Assembly (NCBI GenBank): GCA_029936315.1 | Contig: JAPYTD010000022.1 | Span: forward strand, 5,526 to 59,933 | Source: Planctomycetota bacterium | GTDB taxonomy: Bacteria > Planctomycetota > UBA1135 > UBA2386 | Reading direction: 5' to 3' | DNA: 54,408 nt | Part shown: positions 45,290 to 52,431 of the stretch, piece by piece | Position numbering within the stretch: position 1 is the first letter of the stretch | Layout: every line of letters begins with the position of its first letter | Notes under the pieces: generated by a model | The model's input: only the letters and a program-made list of their open reading frames with translations | What the model was told of the DNA's origin: nothing | Database searches by the model: none | Program-made: the position numbers and the translations under genes

Positions 45290-47767
45290 ATGCAATCCCG
45301 CTTTACCTGGTCCTTGTTCCTGCTCGCGTCGCTACTCACGCCGCTGACTTCGCAGGACGATCCCAAGTTCACGCTCGTCGCGACCCTTGAGCCGGCTGCC
45401 GCCAAACCTGGCGAGCAGGTCAAGCTGGTGCTGCACGGCACGACCGCGCACGGTTGGCACGCCTACGGCACAATGGAGACCGACAACACTCCGGTGTCGA
45501 TTGATACCGCGGCGTTGCAACTGACCGGCTTCGAACTCGCAGGGCCGGCGGTGATCCCCGGTGGCTCGCCGAAGTTCACGCCGATTGGCACGTCGTACCC
45601 ATTGCCGGAGACCTTCAAGGTCGTTGTGCCGCTGAAGGTCTTGGCTGGCGCGACGGCGAGGAAGGTAGAAGGGGTGCTCGGCTACCAGATCTGCGATGCC
45701 TCGATGTGCGAGCGGCCCAACGAGGCTGCGTTCGTCGCGAAGATGGGGAGCGGCGGTGCTGGTGGTGCGGTTGCGAAGCCGGCAGCGCAGCAGCCGGCAA
45801 CCCAGGGGCCGGGCAGTGGCAGCAAGCCCGAACCAGTTTTGGGACTCGGCACTGCGCCGGGACTTGTGCTCGATGAAGAGAAGATCACGATTCGCGCGAG
45901 CTTCGATCCTCCGACGGTACGTGCTGGCGAAGTGACCACGCTTGTTCTCGATGTGGATGTGATCGACGGATGGCATGCCTACGGCACGCTCGAGCCGATC
46001 AACGTTCCCGTCGGCTTTGACGCGTTCAAGCAAGACGCTGGCGACTTGGAGTTCGAAGGCGAGGCGATCATTCCGCCCGGCATCGAGCAATCGACTCCGG
46101 TTGGGCCGACCTTTCCGTTACCGCACCACTTCCGGGTGAAGCAACACGTGCGCGTGCCAGCTGGCACGGCAGCGGGCACGATCGATGTGGTCGCCGTGCT
46201 CGACTACCAGATTTGTGATGAGAGTGGTTGTGAGAATCCGACCGAAGGCGACGCCGAAGTGACGTTGACGGTGGTCGCTGGTGAGGCGCGCTCCGAGCGC
46301 ATGGACGTGCCACAAGACCCGGTCGTCGTGGGCGCTGAGCCTGACAAGGGCGATGCCGGCCAAATCACCGAGCCTGAAGGGGGTGGCGCCGGAGTAGCTG
46401 GTTCGTGGTGGGAGCTGATCTTGTTGTGTATCGGGGGTGGCTTGTTCGCACTCGCGATGCCGTGCACATATCCGATGATTCCGATCACGTTTAGCTTCTT
46501 CACGAAGCAGGCAGAGAAGCGCGGCGGAAACGTGTTAGGGCTGACGCTGGTTTACGGTCTTGGCATCGTGGCCATGTTCGTGTTTGTCGGCGTTGGGCTC
46601 TCCTCGGTTATCCGAGACGTGACGAATCACTGGATCACCAACACGATCATTGGCGCCTTCTTCTTCTTCTTCGCCTTCGTGTTGTTTGGTTGGGTCAATC
46701 TGAATCCACCACAGTGGATGAATCGTCTGGCCTACAAGGCGCAGAGCACTGCTGGCTCAGGCCGTGGGATGATTAGCGCGTTTCTCGGAGTCTTCTTCAT
46801 GGGTGCGACGCTCGTGCTCACTTCCTTTACGTGTACCGCACCGATTGTTGGCACCCTTATTGGGAGTGTTGCGAAGCATGGCCCGGTGCGGGTTGGCGTC
46901 GGAATGGGCGTCTTCGGATTGACCATGGCGATTCCGTTCATGGCACTTTCCCTGATGCCCGGCAAGGTCAAGTCCATGCCTAAGTCAGGCGAGTGGATGG
47001 AGACGCTGAAGATTTCGCTCGGCTTCGTTGAACTGGCGGCGGCCTTCAAATTCGTGTCGATGGTCGATATGGCCTTTGACTGGCAACTGTTGCCGCGTGA
47101 ACTCTTCCTGATGCTGTGGGCTGCGATCTTTGGCCTGTGGGCGATGTACCTGTTCGGCATCTTGCGCAAAGCAGGCACCGTCAACGAGGGTGTGAGTAGC
47201 GGTCGAATGGCAACCGGCATGGTGGTTACGTTGTTGTCGGCCTACTTCCTCTTCGGGGCTCTTGGCAACAAACTCGACGCGGGCATGACATCGTTCGTGC
47301 CCCCGTACTCAAACTCGTTGATTGCCAATGCGGGCGGTGAGTCCAAGCTCAAGTCGCAGCACGTCATCGTAAAGGACCACCCCGACGAGGCGATTGCGAA
47401 GGCGACTAAGGAGGGGAAGATGCTGCTGTACAACTTCACTGGATTCAATTGAGGTTCGTGCCGCATCATGGAAGACAGTGTCTTCCCGAGTGAGGCGGTC
47501 GCCTCCTTCATGAAGGACCATGTAGTCGAGAGTCGGTTGCACACGGACTTGCAGGGTTCCCTGACCGATGAACAGTTCTCCAGGAACCGCAAGCTGCAGG
47601 ATGAGATCGCGGATGGCAGCACTGCGAACCCTTATTTTGTCATGGTCGACGCGGCGTCCGGCAAGCCGATCATGCACTTTGCGTTGTCGGGTTACTTCCC
47701 GGCCTGGCCCGATCTTTGGATGAAGTTCCTCGAGGCCTCAGCCAAGAAGATCGGCCGAACCATCTGA
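45290..47767 (+). CDS. dsbD: Thiol:disulfide interchange protein DsbD, predicted selenoprotein (Sec at TGA 47450-47452), 825 aa
   Basis: Two Ig-like N domains (YQICDASMC, YQICDESGC), TM domain PCTYPMIP / FTCTAP / PKSGEWM, and thioredoxin NFTGFN-TGA-GSCRIME continuing in frame into ORF 47468..47767. Confidence 0.85.
47453..47500 (+). promoter_or_regulatory. Candidate bacterial SECIS element
   Basis: Upper stem GGAAGAC 47470-76 / GTCTTCC 47480-86 with loop AGT 24 nt after the UGA; lower stem GCCGC-A-TCA / TGA-G-GCGGT. Confidence 0.7.
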
Positions 47768-47787
47768 GGCTCTTCTGAACCGGCCTG

Positions 47788-49356
47788 CTACCGCGGGCCG
47801 CGGTTGACCTCGACGGCCCAAGTCATCTTCTTGGTCCACACAACCTTACCGGCCTTGTCGAACTCACGAACGCGCGTGGTCTCGGCGACGATCGTGTGAC
47901 CATTGGGCAACCGGTCGGCGTCGCTGGGTGACGAAAGGCCGGTGACCTGCCAGACGATCTCGCCGTTTGGGCTGTATTCGGCGATCGTGCCTTTGTTGCG
48001 CAGGGTCACGAGAGTGTTGCCGTTGGGCAGGCGGTCGGCGTCGTGCACGTTGGGCACTCCGCCAAGTTCCCAGACGATCCTGCCAGCACGGTCGACTTCG
48101 ATCACGCGATCCTGGAGCACGTCCGCGATCAGGACCGTGCCAACGTTGGTCGCCTCTGCATCAAACGGGCGAATGTCATTGTCGTAGGTCCAAACGACCT
48201 TGCCCTGTTGGCTGACTTCGATGACCCGGCCGCCAAACGTGTCGGCGATCAGCGTGTTGCCGTTGGCGAGTCGCTGCGCGCAGTACGGGTTCTTGAGCTT
48301 CTCATACGTCCAGACCACCTTGCCCTTGCGCGTGATCTCCTGCACTCGGCTGACGCTGAACTCGACGATCAGCAAGTTGCCGTTGGGCAGGATGTCCGCG
48401 TCCCATGCGCCGAAGATCTCGTCCCAGGACGCGATCTCCTTGCCTTGAGCATCCACCTCGACGACGCGGTTCTCGGAGTAGTCCGCGATGATCGTGGTGG
48501 CGGGTTTCGGCGTGCGCATTGGTTTGGCCTTCATGGCTTGCTTGGGAGCAGGCTGCCAACGGCTGACTTCCACAGCCCAGACCATCTCCTTCGCCCAGAC
48601 GACCTTCTTGGTGCGGTCGAACTCGCGAACGATCTTGTTCTCGGCGACGATCGTGTTGCCATTGGGTAAGCGATCGGCATCGCTGGGGTGTGCAAGGTCG
48701 AACAGGCTCCAGACGATCTCGCCCTTGCCGTTGACCTCCATGACGGTGCCCGTAGCCCGCAGCGTGATCAGCGTGTTGCCGTTAGCCAGGCGATCGGCGT
48801 CGTGGGGCGTCGGCAACTCGCCGATCTCCCAGACGATCTCGCCTTCTCGATTCACTTCAATGACTCGGTTGTTGAGCACATCTGTGATCAGCACCGTGTT
48901 GGTTGGGGTCAACTCGGCGTCGAACGGGCGGATGTTCTTGTCGAACCTCCAGACGACCACGCCAACCGGGTCGACCTCGATGACTTCCGAGGCAAACGTG
49001 TTCGCGATCAGGGTGTTGCCGTTGGCGAGCCGCTGCGCGCTGTATGGGTTCTTGAGCTTGCCGTAGGACCAGACGCTGTTGCCATCACGGTCTAGCTCGC
49101 TGACCCGACTGACACTGAACGCAACGACCAGGATGTTGCCGTTGGGCAGATAGTTCGCGTCCCACACGCCGAAGATATCCGCCCACTCGGCGCACTCCCG
49201 GCCATTGCGGTCGACTTCGACGACGCGGTTGGCGGAGTAGTCGGCAATCAGCGAGTTGCCGGGCTTCTGCTGGAGAACGGGGTCGAGTGTCAGTGCGGTG
49301 CAGCCAGCGACACTCAAGCCCACGATCATCGAGACACCGGTCATGCAACGGTTCAT
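47788..49356 (-). CDS. Lipoprotein with two tandem beta-propeller domains (PQQ/arylsulfotransferase-like repeats)
   Basis: Lipobox VAGC; two near-identical ~235-aa halves built of ADRLPNGNTL...V.E...G.VVW blades. Confidence 0.8.
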   Translation of the reverse strand: MNRCMTGVSMIVGLSVAGCTALTLDPVLQQKPGNSLIADYSANRVVEVDRNGRECAEWADIFGVWDANYLPNGNILVVAFSVSRVSELDRDGNSVWSYGKLKNPYSAQRLANGNTLIANTFASEVIEVDPVGVVVWRFDKNIRPFDAELTPTNTVLITDVLNNRVIEVNREGEIVWEIGELPTPHDADRLANGNTLITLRATGTVMEVNGKGEIVWSLFDLAHPSDADRLPNGNTIVAENKIVREFDRTKKVVWAKEMVWAVEVSRWQPAPKQAMKAKPMRTPKPATTIIADYSENRVVEVDAQGKEIASWDEIFGAWDADILPNGNLLIVEFSVSRVQEITRKGKVVWTYEKLKNPYCAQRLANGNTLIADTFGGRVIEVSQQGKVVWTYDNDIRPFDAEATNVGTVLIADVLQDRVIEVDRAGRIVWELGGVPNVHDADRLPNGNTLVTLRNKGTIAEYSPNGEIVWQVTGLSSPSDADRLPNGHTIVAETTRVREFDKAGKVVWTKKMTWAVEVNRGPR

Positions 49357-50399: not shown

Positions 50400-50490
50400 G
50401 AACGCAGATAACTTTGCCGACACGAAAATGCGATGACAACAAGCTTTGCGTGTCGGAATGCCGATCTCATGCTTGGCCCCCTGCTCGTCC

Positions 50491-52431
50491 ATGGCTCAAC
50501 ACAAAGCTCGCACCACCTGTAACCGAGACTGCCCCGACGCGTGCGGCATTATCGCTACGCTCGATGACGGCGTTGTCACCAAGCTGGAAGGTGATCCCGC
50601 CCATCCGGTGACCAAGGGCTTCCTGTGCTTCCGCACGAGTCGCTTCCCTGAGTTGATGGCATCCTCGGTGCGGGTGGCGCAGCCAATGGTGCGACGCAAC
50701 AACCGCCTCGAACCGGCGACTTGGGAAGTTGCGCTCAGCTTGATCGCCGCGAAGCTGGTGCAGGTTCGTGAGGAGTCGGGCGCGGAAGCCATCTTCCACT
50801 ACCGCGCGGGAGGGTCGCTCGGGATCCTCAAGCACATGACGGACTTGCTCTTCGACGAGTTCGGTCCGTGCACGACCAAGGTTGGTGACGTCTGTTCGGG
50901 TGCCGGAGAAGCGGCGCAACAAACCGACTTCGGTACGAGTGACAGCAACGACCTGTTTGACCTGCTCAACAGCAAGCACATTGTGTTGTGGGGCAAGAAC
51001 CCGCGCGTAAGCAACGTGCATCTTGTGCCCGTTCTCAACGACGCGAAGAAGGGTGGCACCCAGATCGTTTCGATCGATCCCCTGCATCACAAGTCGAGCA
51101 GCCTCGCCGACTGTTCGATGCAGCTACGGCCTGGCAGTGACTATGAACTTGCGATGGGCGTGGCGCGGGTGTTGTTTGACAGTTGCCAGGTGCACCCCGA
51201 TGCGCCTGATTACTGCGACAACTTCGATGCGTATCGCGCGCTCGTGCATCAGTGTGATGTCGCGCAGTGGGCGGCGAAGACGGACCTGTCGGAAGCCGAT
51301 GTTCGGCTGCTTGCCGAGCGCTTTGCCGAAGGGCCGACTGCGATCTTGGTTGGTTGGGGCATGCAACGGCGGCAACGCGGTGGCGCCATCGTGCGCGCAC
51401 TGGACGCACTGTGTGCGATCTCCGGCAACCTGTTTCGTTCGGGTGGCGGCGTTTCGTTCTACTTCGCGCGCCGCAAGTCCTTCCGTGCGTTCGGGCCCGT
51501 AGTCAAGCATCCGCGCACGATCCGCGAACCGTTGCTGGGCCAAGACATGCTCGCGGCGGATCCGCCTATCCGCGTCATGTGGGTCACGGCTGGCAATCCG
51601 GTTTCGATGCTGCCCGACGCCAAAAACGTCGCGAAGGCGATTGAGCAGACCGAGTTCGTGGTGGTCGCAGACTGCCTGATGACCGATACGGCGCGTCGTG
51701 CTGATGTCGTCTTGCCGATCCCGACTCTGCTCGAAGACAGCGACCTGCTGGGCTCGTACGGCCATCACTGGATTGCGGAGTCGCAGCCGGTAGTGGCGGC
51801 ACCTTCCGGCGTGCGTCATGAAGTGCGCATCTTCCAGGACCTGGCCAAGCGTCTTGGTCTCGAAGACTACCCGCAGGCGAGCATTGACCAACTCAAGCGA
51901 AAGGCGTTGGCAACGGTCTCTGGGCAGGGCGCGGGACTGGACTCGTTGCGTCGTTCGGGTGCGTTGCGCAGTCCCTTGGCCAGTCCGCTGTTGTTTTCCG
52001 ACGGTCGCGTGCTGACGAAGAGCGGTCGCGTACAGTTGCTCGATGTGGCGCCGGATGAGGTACAGACGTCGGCGCCGCCCGCCAAGAATTCGTCCAGCGA
52101 GCCGTTGTGGTTGTTCTCCAACTCCACGGCGAAGAGCCAAGGTTCGCAGTGGGTTGGCGACGGCCTAGGCGACCGGTCGTGGATCAAAGTGCATCCCGAC
52201 GCGTTGCCCGGCATCGCCGAAGGCACGATCGTGAAGGTTGCGAGCACGACCGGCGAGATCGAAGTCGAACTGCGCCACGACGCACAGCAGCGCGTCGATG
52301 TCGCGATTATGCCGAAGGGCGGCCACTTCGATCGCGGCCAGAGCGCCAATGTGCTGATCGCCGCCCGCGCTACGGATGTCGGGCTCGGCGCTGCCTATCT
52401 GGACTGCCTGGTCCGCATCGGACCGCGGTAG
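50491..52431 (+). CDS. Molybdopterin-dependent oxidoreductase with N-terminal 4Fe-4S cluster
   Basis: CNRDCPDAC..GFLC, DVC (putative Mo ligand), VLWGKNP, GWGMQR, TDTARRADVVLP; no Tat signal. Confidence 0.9.
   Translation: MAQHKARTTCNRDCPDACGIIATLDDGVVTKLEGDPAHPVTKGFLCFRTSRFPELMASSVRVAQPMVRRNNRLEPATWEVALSLIAAKLVQVREESGAEAIFHYRAGGSLGILKHMTDLLFDEFGPCTTKVGDVCSGAGEAAQQTDFGTSDSNDLFDLLNSKHIVLWGKNPRVSNVHLVPVLNDAKKGGTQIVSIDPLHHKSSSLADCSMQLRPGSDYELAMGVARVLFDSCQVHPDAPDYCDNFDAYRALVHQCDVAQWAAKTDLSEADVRLLAERFAEGPTAILVGWGMQRRQRGGAIVRALDALCAISGNLFRSGGGVSFYFARRKSFRAFGPVVKHPRTIREPLLGQDMLAADPPIRVMWVTAGNPVSMLPDAKNVAKAIEQTEFVVVADCLMTDTARRADVVLPIPTLLEDSDLLGSYGHHWIAESQPVVAAPSGVRHEVRIFQDLAKRLGLEDYPQASIDQLKRKALATVSGQGAGLDSLRRSGALRSPLASPLLFSDGRVLTKSGRVQLLDVAPDEVQTSAPPAKNSSSEPLWLFSNSTAKSQGSQWVGDGLGDRSWIKVHPDALPGIAEGTIVKVASTTGEIEVELRHDAQQRVDVAIMPKGGHFDRGQSANVLIAARATDVGLGAAYLDCLVRIGPR

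Follow-up and report, generated by a model that had tools for sequence, protein, structure and literature searches.

A gene for a protein resembling the membrane reductase DsbD is interrupted by a TGA codon in the middle of its thioredoxin-like domain; does translation end there, or is the codon read through as an amino acid? The question is raised by a 54,408-nucleotide stretch of DNA from a Planctomycetota bacterium (GenBank assembly GCA_029936315.1, contig JAPYTD010000022.1, positions 5,526 to 59,933; hereafter the window, to which positions refer unless another contig is named). We conclude with high confidence that positions 45290-47767 form one gene for an 825-residue DsbD-type membrane protein-disulfide reductase, in which the UGA at 47450-52 is decoded as selenocysteine (Sec, U). 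This conclusion is carried by the in-frame UGA itself, by the alternation of Sec and Cys at its column in relatives, by the Sec machinery of the genome, by the fold of the domain spanning the codon, and by a covarying RNA structure specific to Sec forms. A single 825-residue selenoprotein had been proposed in an earlier reading of the stretch (the sequence-only reading), and the machinery, the TGA/Cys alternation and the Sec-specific RNA now support it.

A DsbD-type gene with an in-frame TGA

Translation of the window from ATG 45290 meets its first stop at TGA 47450-52. Beyond it the same frame reads GGT TCG TGC CGC ATC ATG, where the in-frame ATG at 47468 creates a 99-amino-acid open reading frame (ORF) that runs to TGA 47765-67. 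With the internal TGA translated as U, the product has 825 residues, ...LLYNFTGFN-U721-GSC724-RIMEDSVF..., and close relatives can be aligned to it over residues 1-825. The terminator of the gene, TGA 47765-67, is the same codon as the internal UGA. The sequence-only reading had described a DsbD ORF ending at 47450-52 whose frame continues into the 99-residue ORF, as we found, and had anticipated that standard annotation would split the gene. Indeed, 19 of 20 public protein predictions with the C-terminal region end at the TGA (residue 720), named DsbD or left unnamed, and the one that runs past the U721 column is a Cys form. The features on which the argument turns are listed here.

45290..47767, forward strand: whole coding region of the proposed Sec-DsbD, in which 825 codons, the internal UGA specifying Sec among them, precede the terminator TGA 47765-67; Pfam DsbD_N, DsbD_TM and thioredoxin-like matches
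47450..47452, forward strand: proposed UGA Sec codon (U721), first position of U-G-S-C; TGA/Cys alternation in relatives and independent contigs
47459..47461, forward strand: C724 codon, from the translation
47470..47486, forward strand: hairpin H1, GGAAGAC-AGU-GUCUUCC, a 7-bp stem at -8.7 kcal/mol whose loop starts 24 nt after the TGA
47492..47505, forward strand: hairpin H2, GAGGC-GGUC-GCCUC, at -7.9 kcal/mol, with a loop (47497-47500) that is invariant in Sec forms

Contigs from three other studies (runs X4, X5 and X9) cover 47000-47800 with 1 to 4 differences each, at 47148, 47329, 47407 and 47635, and leave the TGA and both hairpins unchanged. Because these independent contigs keep the codon, the TGA at 47450-52 is not an assembly error, a point that the sequence-only reading had wanted settled from the reads. 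Runs containing the stretch come from marine, hydrothermal-vent and cold-seep metagenomes of several studies.

Selenocysteine and cysteine alternate at residue 721

A six-frame search of 41 related genomes, the window's own included, found a homologue in 36. At the U721 column, 29 of 30 loci could be mapped (one was a fragment), with TGA in 25 and TGC or TGT in 4. A scan of species-representative genomes, which overlap partly with those 41, gave 324 loci with a relative; among the best 80 of these, 79 were mapped and carried TGA in 65, TGC in 13 and TGT in 1. We also sampled 151 Planctomycetota genomes evenly across the phylum, each at least 80% complete, and 69 had a match at E <= 1e-30. With the window's genome excluded, 58 matches span residue 721, 43 with one in-frame TGA and 15 without. 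Sequences were fetched for 35 of the 43, and the TGA lies at the U721 column in 34, while the remaining one has TGC there and its TGA elsewhere; all five fetched from the 15 without a TGA have TGC or TGT at the column (5/5). Four more of the 43 genomes had been checked in the 41-genome set, so that TGA at this column is verified in 38 of 150 other sampled Planctomycetota genomes. The phylum-level set thus comprises 40 mapped loci, 34 with TGA and 6 with TGC or TGT, and its Sec forms reach down to 29% protein identity with the query. The three locus sets overlap in part. Every mapped locus that lacks TGA has a Cys codon (TGC or TGT) at the column, without exception. The alternation that the sequence-only reading had proposed looking for is therefore present, with TGA in 25 of 29, 65 of 79 and 34 of 35 loci and Cys in the rest.

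By their record titles, nearly all of the related loci belong to Planctomycetota metagenome-assembled genomes (MAGs). Locus L073 is labelled Luminiphilus sp., L080 Candidatus Kuenenia stuttgartiensis and others Brocadiaceae, and all of these group with unclassified Planctomycetota MAGs; the labels may reflect binning or labelling trouble.

A maximum-likelihood tree of 56 C-terminal regions needs two changes of Sec/Cys label, and its 11 Cys rows fall into two nested clades (8 and 3) inside Sec-bearing lineages. Sec is probably ancestral within the sample, the tree being midpoint-rooted and built on 131 columns. A DsbD of this kind, almost certainly selenium-containing, is widespread in marine Planctomycetota.

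The genome encodes complete selenocysteine machinery and other candidate selenoproteins

The window's genome (4.98 Mb in 180 contigs, 92% complete) holds a tRNA-Sec with anticodon TCA (69.7 bits) together with selA (466 bits), selB (343 bits) and selD (356 bits), each exceeding its curated cut-off. These make up a full set of Sec machinery, with a selD that itself contains Sec. All four of the genes that the sequence-only reading had named for a search (selA, selB, selC and selD) are thus present above cut-off in a 92%-complete genome. The selD gene (contig C26:27594-28532, reverse strand; L018) has its own in-frame TGA, ...YASSSG-U-AAKLPPG, and adjoins selA (C26:28618-29952). Considered as a second SECIS (Sec insertion sequence) example, selD was set aside, as the hairpin after its TGA has no GGUC loop and gives no help in choosing between H1 and H2.

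We scanned the genome for TGAs that lie in a frame open on both sides and have a GGUC-loop hairpin with a stem of 5 bp or more 12-60 nt further on. The scan returned 61 hits, nine of which look coding across the TGA: the DsbD gene and eight others, namely five AhpC-TSA/redoxin paralogues, two deiodinase-like proteins with EF-hands and one tetratricopeptide repeat (TPR) protein. A Pfam redox domain spans the TGA in seven of these eight. As background, the two strands of the genome together carry 346 GGUC-loop hairpins of this minimum length, a frequency of 0.0017 per 49-nt span.

The five redoxin paralogues are TlpA-like and carry DFWG-x-W-U-x-P-C (L130-L134, at C11:33115+, C23:96355+, C42:28211+, C71:18580+ and C107:927-). 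They share a near-identical hairpin, CACGAGC-GGUC-GCUCGUG, with its loop at +34, and most have a small hairpin directly 3' of the UGA; their N-termini resemble signal peptides and are followed by long non-catalytic N-terminal regions. The two deiodinase-like genes (PF00837; L135 and L136, at C8:84693- and C45:78737+) combine EF-hand repeats with GS-x-T-U-x-P-F and have the GGUC loop at +24. The eighth gene (L137, C93:16731+; ...TANGCW-U-PAAEVL...) has a GGUC hairpin at +22, Pfam gives TPR only, and we regard it as a candidate selenoprotein.

Since the first scan required GGUC, a second used third-position GC alone. It yielded a GCHY-U protein with an AhpD/CMD-like CxxU motif (loop GGUCU at +21), two paralogues with U-C-I...PQFVD (loop AGUU[U/C] at +22), a T-U-HNC protein (loop AGUUC at +29) and a W-U-GPC protein, all as candidates (C124:2618+, C8:65485-, C44:709+, C29:8699+ and C78:76417+). 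The genome has no Sec formate dehydrogenase by the TIGR01553 model, whose best match reaches 110 bits where 814 are required and is free of in-frame stops. Within the window, a molybdopterin oxidoreductase gene at 50446-52431 (forward strand; PF00384, PF04879, PF01568) likewise has no in-frame stop and matched the FdhA model weakly. The selenoproteome of this organism appears to consist of SelD and mostly exported thioredoxin-fold proteins.

Two hairpins follow the UGA in selenocysteine forms

The 7-bp stem with an AGT loop that the sequence-only reading had placed 24 nt downstream of the TGA is there (H1, 47470-86, -8.7 kcal/mol), and only 1 of 200 shuffles folds as well. That reading pictured a single hairpin and missed the second one, H2, at 47492-505. 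Folding of the 61-nt segment that begins with the TGA gives -26.4 kcal/mol (z = -3.2), which none of 200 shuffles equals.

We aligned 25 Sec forms over 66 nt from the TGA, with H1 in columns 21-27/31-37 and H2 in columns 43-47/52-56. Changes on both sides of a pair were seen at 4 of the 7 H1 pairs and 4 of the 5 H2 pairs. The covariation score of the structure was 0.236 versus 0.081 +/- 0.015 for shuffled alignments, a value that none of 500 shuffles reached, and slid controls all stayed at or below 0.142. The H2 loop is GGUC in all 25 Sec forms, on stems that include GAGGC/GCCUC, CCGGC/GCCGG, CCAGC/GCUGG, UUGGC/GCCAA, CCGGA/UCCGG and CCCGC/GCGGG. The H1 loop varies even in close relatives (UCA, UCG, CAACA, AAG, AAU, GAC and others). 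A long lower stem around H1, pairing columns 9-14 with 44-49, was rejected in favour of the local H2, as none of its six pairs had changed on both sides.

The structure is confined to TGA forms, which bears out the SECIS covariation suggested as a check in the sequence-only reading. Hairpins were scored by simple script definitions, H2 as a loop of sequence [AG]GU[CU] closed by 4 or more base pairs. Across the 80-locus set, an H1-type hairpin occurs in 59 of 59 distinct Sec forms versus 3 of 14 Cys forms, and H2 in 49 of 59 versus none of 14; with the sets pooled, none of the 22 distinct Cys forms has H2. The codons over the H2 loop in 65 Sec forms are GCG (48), GTC (55) and GCC (45), and the middle codon is ATC in 9 of 14 Cys forms; synonymous sites are frozen in H2. 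Among DsbD relatives H2 takes two loop types, GGUC and AGUU, both of which also occur in the candidates of the GC scan.

In clades that lack H2, H1 is lengthened to as much as 10-11 bp and has GU-containing loops (CGUGA in seven, GGUCA, AGGUG). One such Sec clade (L069, L070, L078, L093, L095, L096 and L097; ...CRIVEGVTF...) has an H1 of 7-11 bp with an invariant CGUGA loop, and stands as sister of the larger Cys clade on the tree. A search of Rfam over 47380-47580 at E <= 1 gave no match and is uninformative; we know of no curated bacterial SECIS family in that database.

The conserved loop of H2 probably binds SelB

The consensus bacterial SECIS (bSECIS) model of Zhang and Gladyshev, as summarised in a later review, specifies a loop of 3-9 nt, a stem of 4-16 bp, a G in the first two loop positions, a distance of 16-37 nt from the UGA and a minimum free energy of at most -7.5 (PMC13188914). 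H1 in the window satisfies all of these rules with a loop that is not conserved; H2 satisfies those for loop, stem and energy but not for distance, at 44 nt. Like the consensus element, the window's RNA has its stem-loops 3' of the UGA in the coding region and a small apical loop that opens with G and then G or U, as in the GGUC of H2, and unlike it, the hairpin with the conserved loop lies at 44 nt while a second conserved hairpin occupies the canonical place. In E. coli fdhF, too, the apical loop reads GGUC.

We consider it probable that in this gene the site bound by SelB is the GGUC loop of H2, which does not vary, and that H1 serves as a conserved folded spacer or accessory hairpin. The same GGUC loop stands 3' of the eight other in-frame TGAs in the genome. 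The lengthened H1 with GU-containing loops in clades that lack H2 also favours H2 here. Among 94 distinct Sec forms, with the three sets pooled, the H1 loop starts with N?G[G/U] in 21 of 35 that lack H2 and in 8 of 59 that have it. A folded H1 would take 17 nt out of the path, giving H2 an effective distance of about 30 nt. What had been proposed for H1 as the SECIS thus stands in part: the hairpin is real, covaries and fits the bSECIS rules, but its loop is not conserved, and the loop contacted by SelB is more likely the GGUC of H2.

Several results count against assigning SelB to H2. Its loop lies 44 nt from the UGA, versus the published 16-37 nt, and H1 fits the bSECIS model in the window, with an H1-type hairpin in every distinct Sec form of the 80-locus set. 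Most deep relatives have a hairpin at the H1 position only, often with a G-rich loop, which makes H1 a possible SelB site in this gene as well. Because the hairpin 3' of the selD TGA has no GGUC loop, the organism's SelB is not restricted to that loop. These results can be assembled into an alternative in which the selenoprotein is the same, H1 (47470-86) is the SelB-binding SECIS, and H2 is accessory (in pausing or mRNA stability) or unrelated. It would draw on the 7-bp stem, the AGU loop with G at position 2, the 24-nt distance and the energy of -8.7 kcal/mol, on covariation at 4 of 7 pairs and an occurrence of 59/59 in Sec versus 3/14 in Cys forms, and on the deep relatives that mostly carry the H1-position hairpin alone. 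Part of the H1 conservation is protein-level, because H1 overlaps the conserved peptide M-E-x-x-x-F. The variable H1 loop, with its N?G[G/U] start in just 8 of 59 H2-bearing Sec forms, and an H2 loop that is both invariant and repeated 3' of eight other in-frame TGAs make this alternative rather unlikely in our view.

The UGA lies within a thioredoxin-like gamma domain

When 56 non-redundant C-terminal regions are aligned, 13 columns do not vary, most of them 3' of the UGA and including C44, R45, E48, H71, D73 and P101, a pattern that points to clear protein-level constraint on the coding sequence after the TGA. A profile of these regions matched PDB 3f9u_A (E 3.8e-16), with FTGYGCVNCRKME over U-x-x-C, and E. 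coli DsbD-gamma chains at E about 2e-3. From the same alignment, AlphaFold2 modelled a 126-residue fragment as a thioredoxin fold with a mean predicted local distance difference test score (pLDDT) of 92.4, and U, residue 41 of the model, falls directly before helix 42-51; the part encoded 3' of the TGA is required to complete this fold. A Foldseek search with this model ranked 3f9u on top (E 7.6e-7), followed by DsbH and thioredoxins, with 1vrs_E at rank 45. Single Pfam models for thioredoxin-like domains match residues 697-794 weakly, each under its cut-off; PF13098, for one, reaches 17.9 bits where 27 are required. The two middle residues of U-x-x-C vary among relatives (UNSC, UVNC, UATC and others).

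Two residues near the motif were noted by motif spacing. N715 (47432-47434), six residues ahead of the Sec, is an invariant Asn where E. coli DsbD has Asp455, and E728 (47471-47473), four residues past the second Cys, is an invariant Glu at the position of Glu468.

Overall architecture of the protein and gene context

Upstream of the gamma domain, the protein has the parts of a DsbD with a duplicated alpha domain, as listed here.

45290..45355, forward strand: putative signal-peptide-like N-terminus, MQSRFTWSLFLLASLLTPLTSQ, read off the translation
45353..45739, forward strand: DsbD-alpha-like domain 1, Cys pair C135/C140 (YQICDASMC); 41% identity to copy 2, E 2e-32
45860..46270, forward strand: DsbD-alpha-like domain 2, Cys pair C309/C314 (YQICDESGC); Pfam DsbD_N PF11412 and the internal duplication
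46409..47059, forward strand: DsbD_TM (beta) membrane core with redox C392 (MPCTYP) and C515 (FTCTAP); Pfam PF02683 and hydropathy
47108..47263, forward strand: two more hydrophobic segments, residues 607-625 and 640-658; Kyte-Doolittle scan
47330..47764, forward strand: gamma thioredoxin-like domain spanning the UGA; PDB profile hits, AlphaFold2 model and Foldseek

The second alpha-like copy matches DsbD_N over residues 210-317 with 31.3 bits, above the cut-off of 25, and a comparison of the protein with itself aligns residues 22-150 with 191-327 at 41% identity (E 2e-32), both copies ending in YQIC-x4-C. DsbD_TM covers residues 374-590 (73.6 bits, E 1.8e-20), and C392 and C515 lie within hydrophobic segments. 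The Cys/Sec inventory comes to nine positions: 135/140, 309/314, 380, 392, 515 and U721/C724. Segments 607-625 and 640-658 would bring the chain back to the side of the membrane that holds the alpha domains.

The upstream neighbour of the gene has no Pfam match. Downstream, a convergent gene at 47788-49356 (reverse strand) encodes an arylsulfotransferase-like beta-propeller (PF14269, PF05935) that contains an internal duplication and has a signal-like N-terminus. Pfam assignments of the flanking genes are uninformative as operon context.

Proposed mechanism and alternative explanations

From these observations we infer selenium insertion itself, along with the topology, the direction of electron flow and the SelB-binding hairpin. 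The protein would be built, in order, of a signal peptide, two tandem alpha-like domains, the DsbD_TM core and a gamma thioredoxin domain with U721-G-S-C724. The UGA at 47450-52 would be decoded by the organism's own SelA, SelB, SelD and tRNA-Sec, steered by an RNA element of two hairpins, H1 spanning +20 to +36 and H2 +42 to +55. If the E. coli enzyme is a guide, electrons would pass from cytoplasmic thioredoxin to the membrane Cys pair and on to the gamma U-x-x-C, where the selenolate of residue 721, the counterpart of Cys461, would reduce one or both alpha domains and, through them, envelope clients. A selenol has a much lower pKa than a thiol and is a better nucleophile and a better leaving group. 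With Sec, exchange with the membrane Cys pair and the alpha domains would be expected to be faster, and the site to resist irreversible over-oxidation.

The E. coli enzyme has three domains with one Cys pair each. In its last internal step Cys461, the first Cys of the gamma CxxC, attacks the alpha Cys103-Cys109 disulfide via Cys461-SS-Cys109. Cys461 is given a pKa of 10.5, unusually high and raised by Asp455 and Glu468, and is described as unreactive until the domains dock (PMC2631958).

Some of our results weigh against this scheme or parts of it. The relatives compared are kin, and counts at the U721 column are not independent. Under the hairpin definitions used, 14 of the 94 distinct Sec forms have neither motif. 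The sole RNA run with part of the stretch reaches 47000-47152, short of the TGA. The Kyte-Doolittle scan shows 7 clear membrane peaks and 1 weak one rather than 8 clear ones, which is compatible with the eight segments of DsbD and no proof of their number. A periplasmic site for the gamma domain and its Sec would follow from homology to DsbD and its topology. In addition, the NCBIfam DsbD model NF001419 scores 106.4 bits against a cut-off of 330; the window protein has DsbD architecture and lies outside that curated subfamily.

If the TGA simply terminated translation, the gene would be a nonsense-mutated or split pseudogene and the 99-residue ORF a remnant or a separately translated product. 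Standard gene callers do stop there, in 19 of 20 public predictions, and ATG 47468 offers an in-frame start, but that start would split the CxxC from its fold, and the x-x-C-R-x between the TGA and the ATG is conserved, its C and R invariantly. The TGA has been kept at its column down to 29% protein identity with Cys as the sole alternative, and the Sec-specific RNA structure and complete machinery speak against decay as well; we regard a pseudogene as scarcely conceivable. It is very improbable that a suppressor or an altered genetic code makes the UGA specify one of the standard amino acids (Trp, Cys or Gly). The gene's own terminator is TGA, and the genome has a dedicated tRNA-Sec with selA, selB and selD. 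TGA is moreover confined to the redox Cys column, the hairpin type is common to UxxC, CxxU and deiodinase-type genes, and Cys forms lack H2.

An explanation compatible with Sec decoding is that the gene gives two products, with an alpha-alpha-beta protein lacking gamma made beside the full-length one or replacing it when selenium is scarce. It draws on the general competition between Sec decoding and termination at UGA codons. A product ending at the TGA would be without a gamma domain, because only one strand-helix-strand of the thioredoxin fold is encoded 5' of it, and it would miss the alpha-reducing step of the E. coli mechanism (PMC2631958). We think two products unlikely. Decoding of the UGA as Sec in a single full-length DsbD-type reductase remains the reading that we prefer.

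Comparison with known proteins and selenoprotein families

The window protein shares with E. coli DsbD (NF001419/PRK00293; 1vrs, 2fwe, 1uc7) the order of alpha, membrane beta and gamma-thioredoxin domains, a Cys pair in each, and, by spacing, a Glu at the Glu468 position that is invariant in its family. It differs in having Sec for Cys461, a duplicated alpha domain and, again by spacing, an invariant Asn at the Asp455 position. Among solved structures, the gamma domain is closest to 3f9u, the C-terminal domain of a Bacteroides fragilis protein named as putative, exported and cytochrome c biogenesis-related; the FTGYGCVNCRKME of 3f9u aligns with FTGF-U-xxCRxME of the window family, with Cys in place of Sec, and the isolated domain alone has been solved.

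TsoB (NF045694), a rhodanese/DsbD fusion-like selenoprotein, shares the DsbD-type membrane core: the window protein matches residues 183-473 of its model, with 83.9 bits against a cut-off of 805, over the membrane core only. TsoB is described in PMC13188914 (Table 1) as having a UxxxxU motif with two Sec and a rhodanese domain, whereas the window protein has one Sec in UxxC, no UxxxxU and no rhodanese domain. Three Deltaproteobacteria-type genomes are the reported source of the 'Thiol:disulfide interchange protein' selenoproteins (PF13098, UxxC; Zhang et al. 2006, PMC1794560; also in Table 1 of PMC13188914). That family has a thioredoxin-fold UxxC like that of the window's gamma domain, and its name is in use for Dsb proteins as well; PF13098 matches the window protein weakly, and the family may itself be of DsbD type. 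The UGSC-containing protein (NF041046) shares U-G-S-C by chance, with no match to its model at E <= 0.01.

No curated selenoprotein model of NCBIfam release 20 matched the window protein at its cut-off. The portion of the 2026 catalogue of 119 prokaryotic selenoprotein families available to us has no entry of DsbD architecture with a gamma Sec, the nearest being TsoB, the UGSC-containing protein, Thiol:disulfide interchange protein, TlpA-like, redoxin and deiodinase-like (PMC13188914). Text searches of the literature on DsbD and on Planctomycetota selenoproteins yielded no Sec-DsbD; Table S9 of PMC4807772, with selenoprotein candidates from two Planctomycetes, may include it. The family may be uncatalogued, or may already be covered by that table or by the catalogued 'Thiol:disulfide interchange protein' family.

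Among bacterial selenoproteins, those with a thioredoxin-fold UxxC are the commonest, and the chemistry of a Sec-DsbD is for that reason unsurprising.

Implications

Cutting the protein at residue 720 records it as a DsbD without a gamma domain and misstates the envelope redox pathway in much of the phylum. Programs that want a G-first loop within 37 nt of the UGA may also miss or mis-assign the two-hairpin element. For the enzymology of the family, a natural Sec-DsbD is a ready test of the need for pKa gating of the Cys461 type.

We also advance, tentatively and at somewhat less than even confidence, a combined proposal on the history and role of this system: in the window's clade, the loop contacted by SelB would have moved from an ancestral H1 at the canonical distance (loop at about +27) to H2 (GGUC at +47), leaving H1 as a folded spacer, and envelope reduction would run on selenium at two steps, first in DsbD and next in the proteins that it reduces. 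The five exported TlpA-like Sec redoxins of this genome are plausible clients of Sec-DsbD. If the proposal is true, the RNA would represent a bipartite class of bacterial SECIS beyond the 16-37 nt rule of search programs, and, with at least five exported TlpA-like U-x-x-C redoxins, the envelope-reducing pathway of these marine Planctomycetota would be selenium-based at two successive steps.

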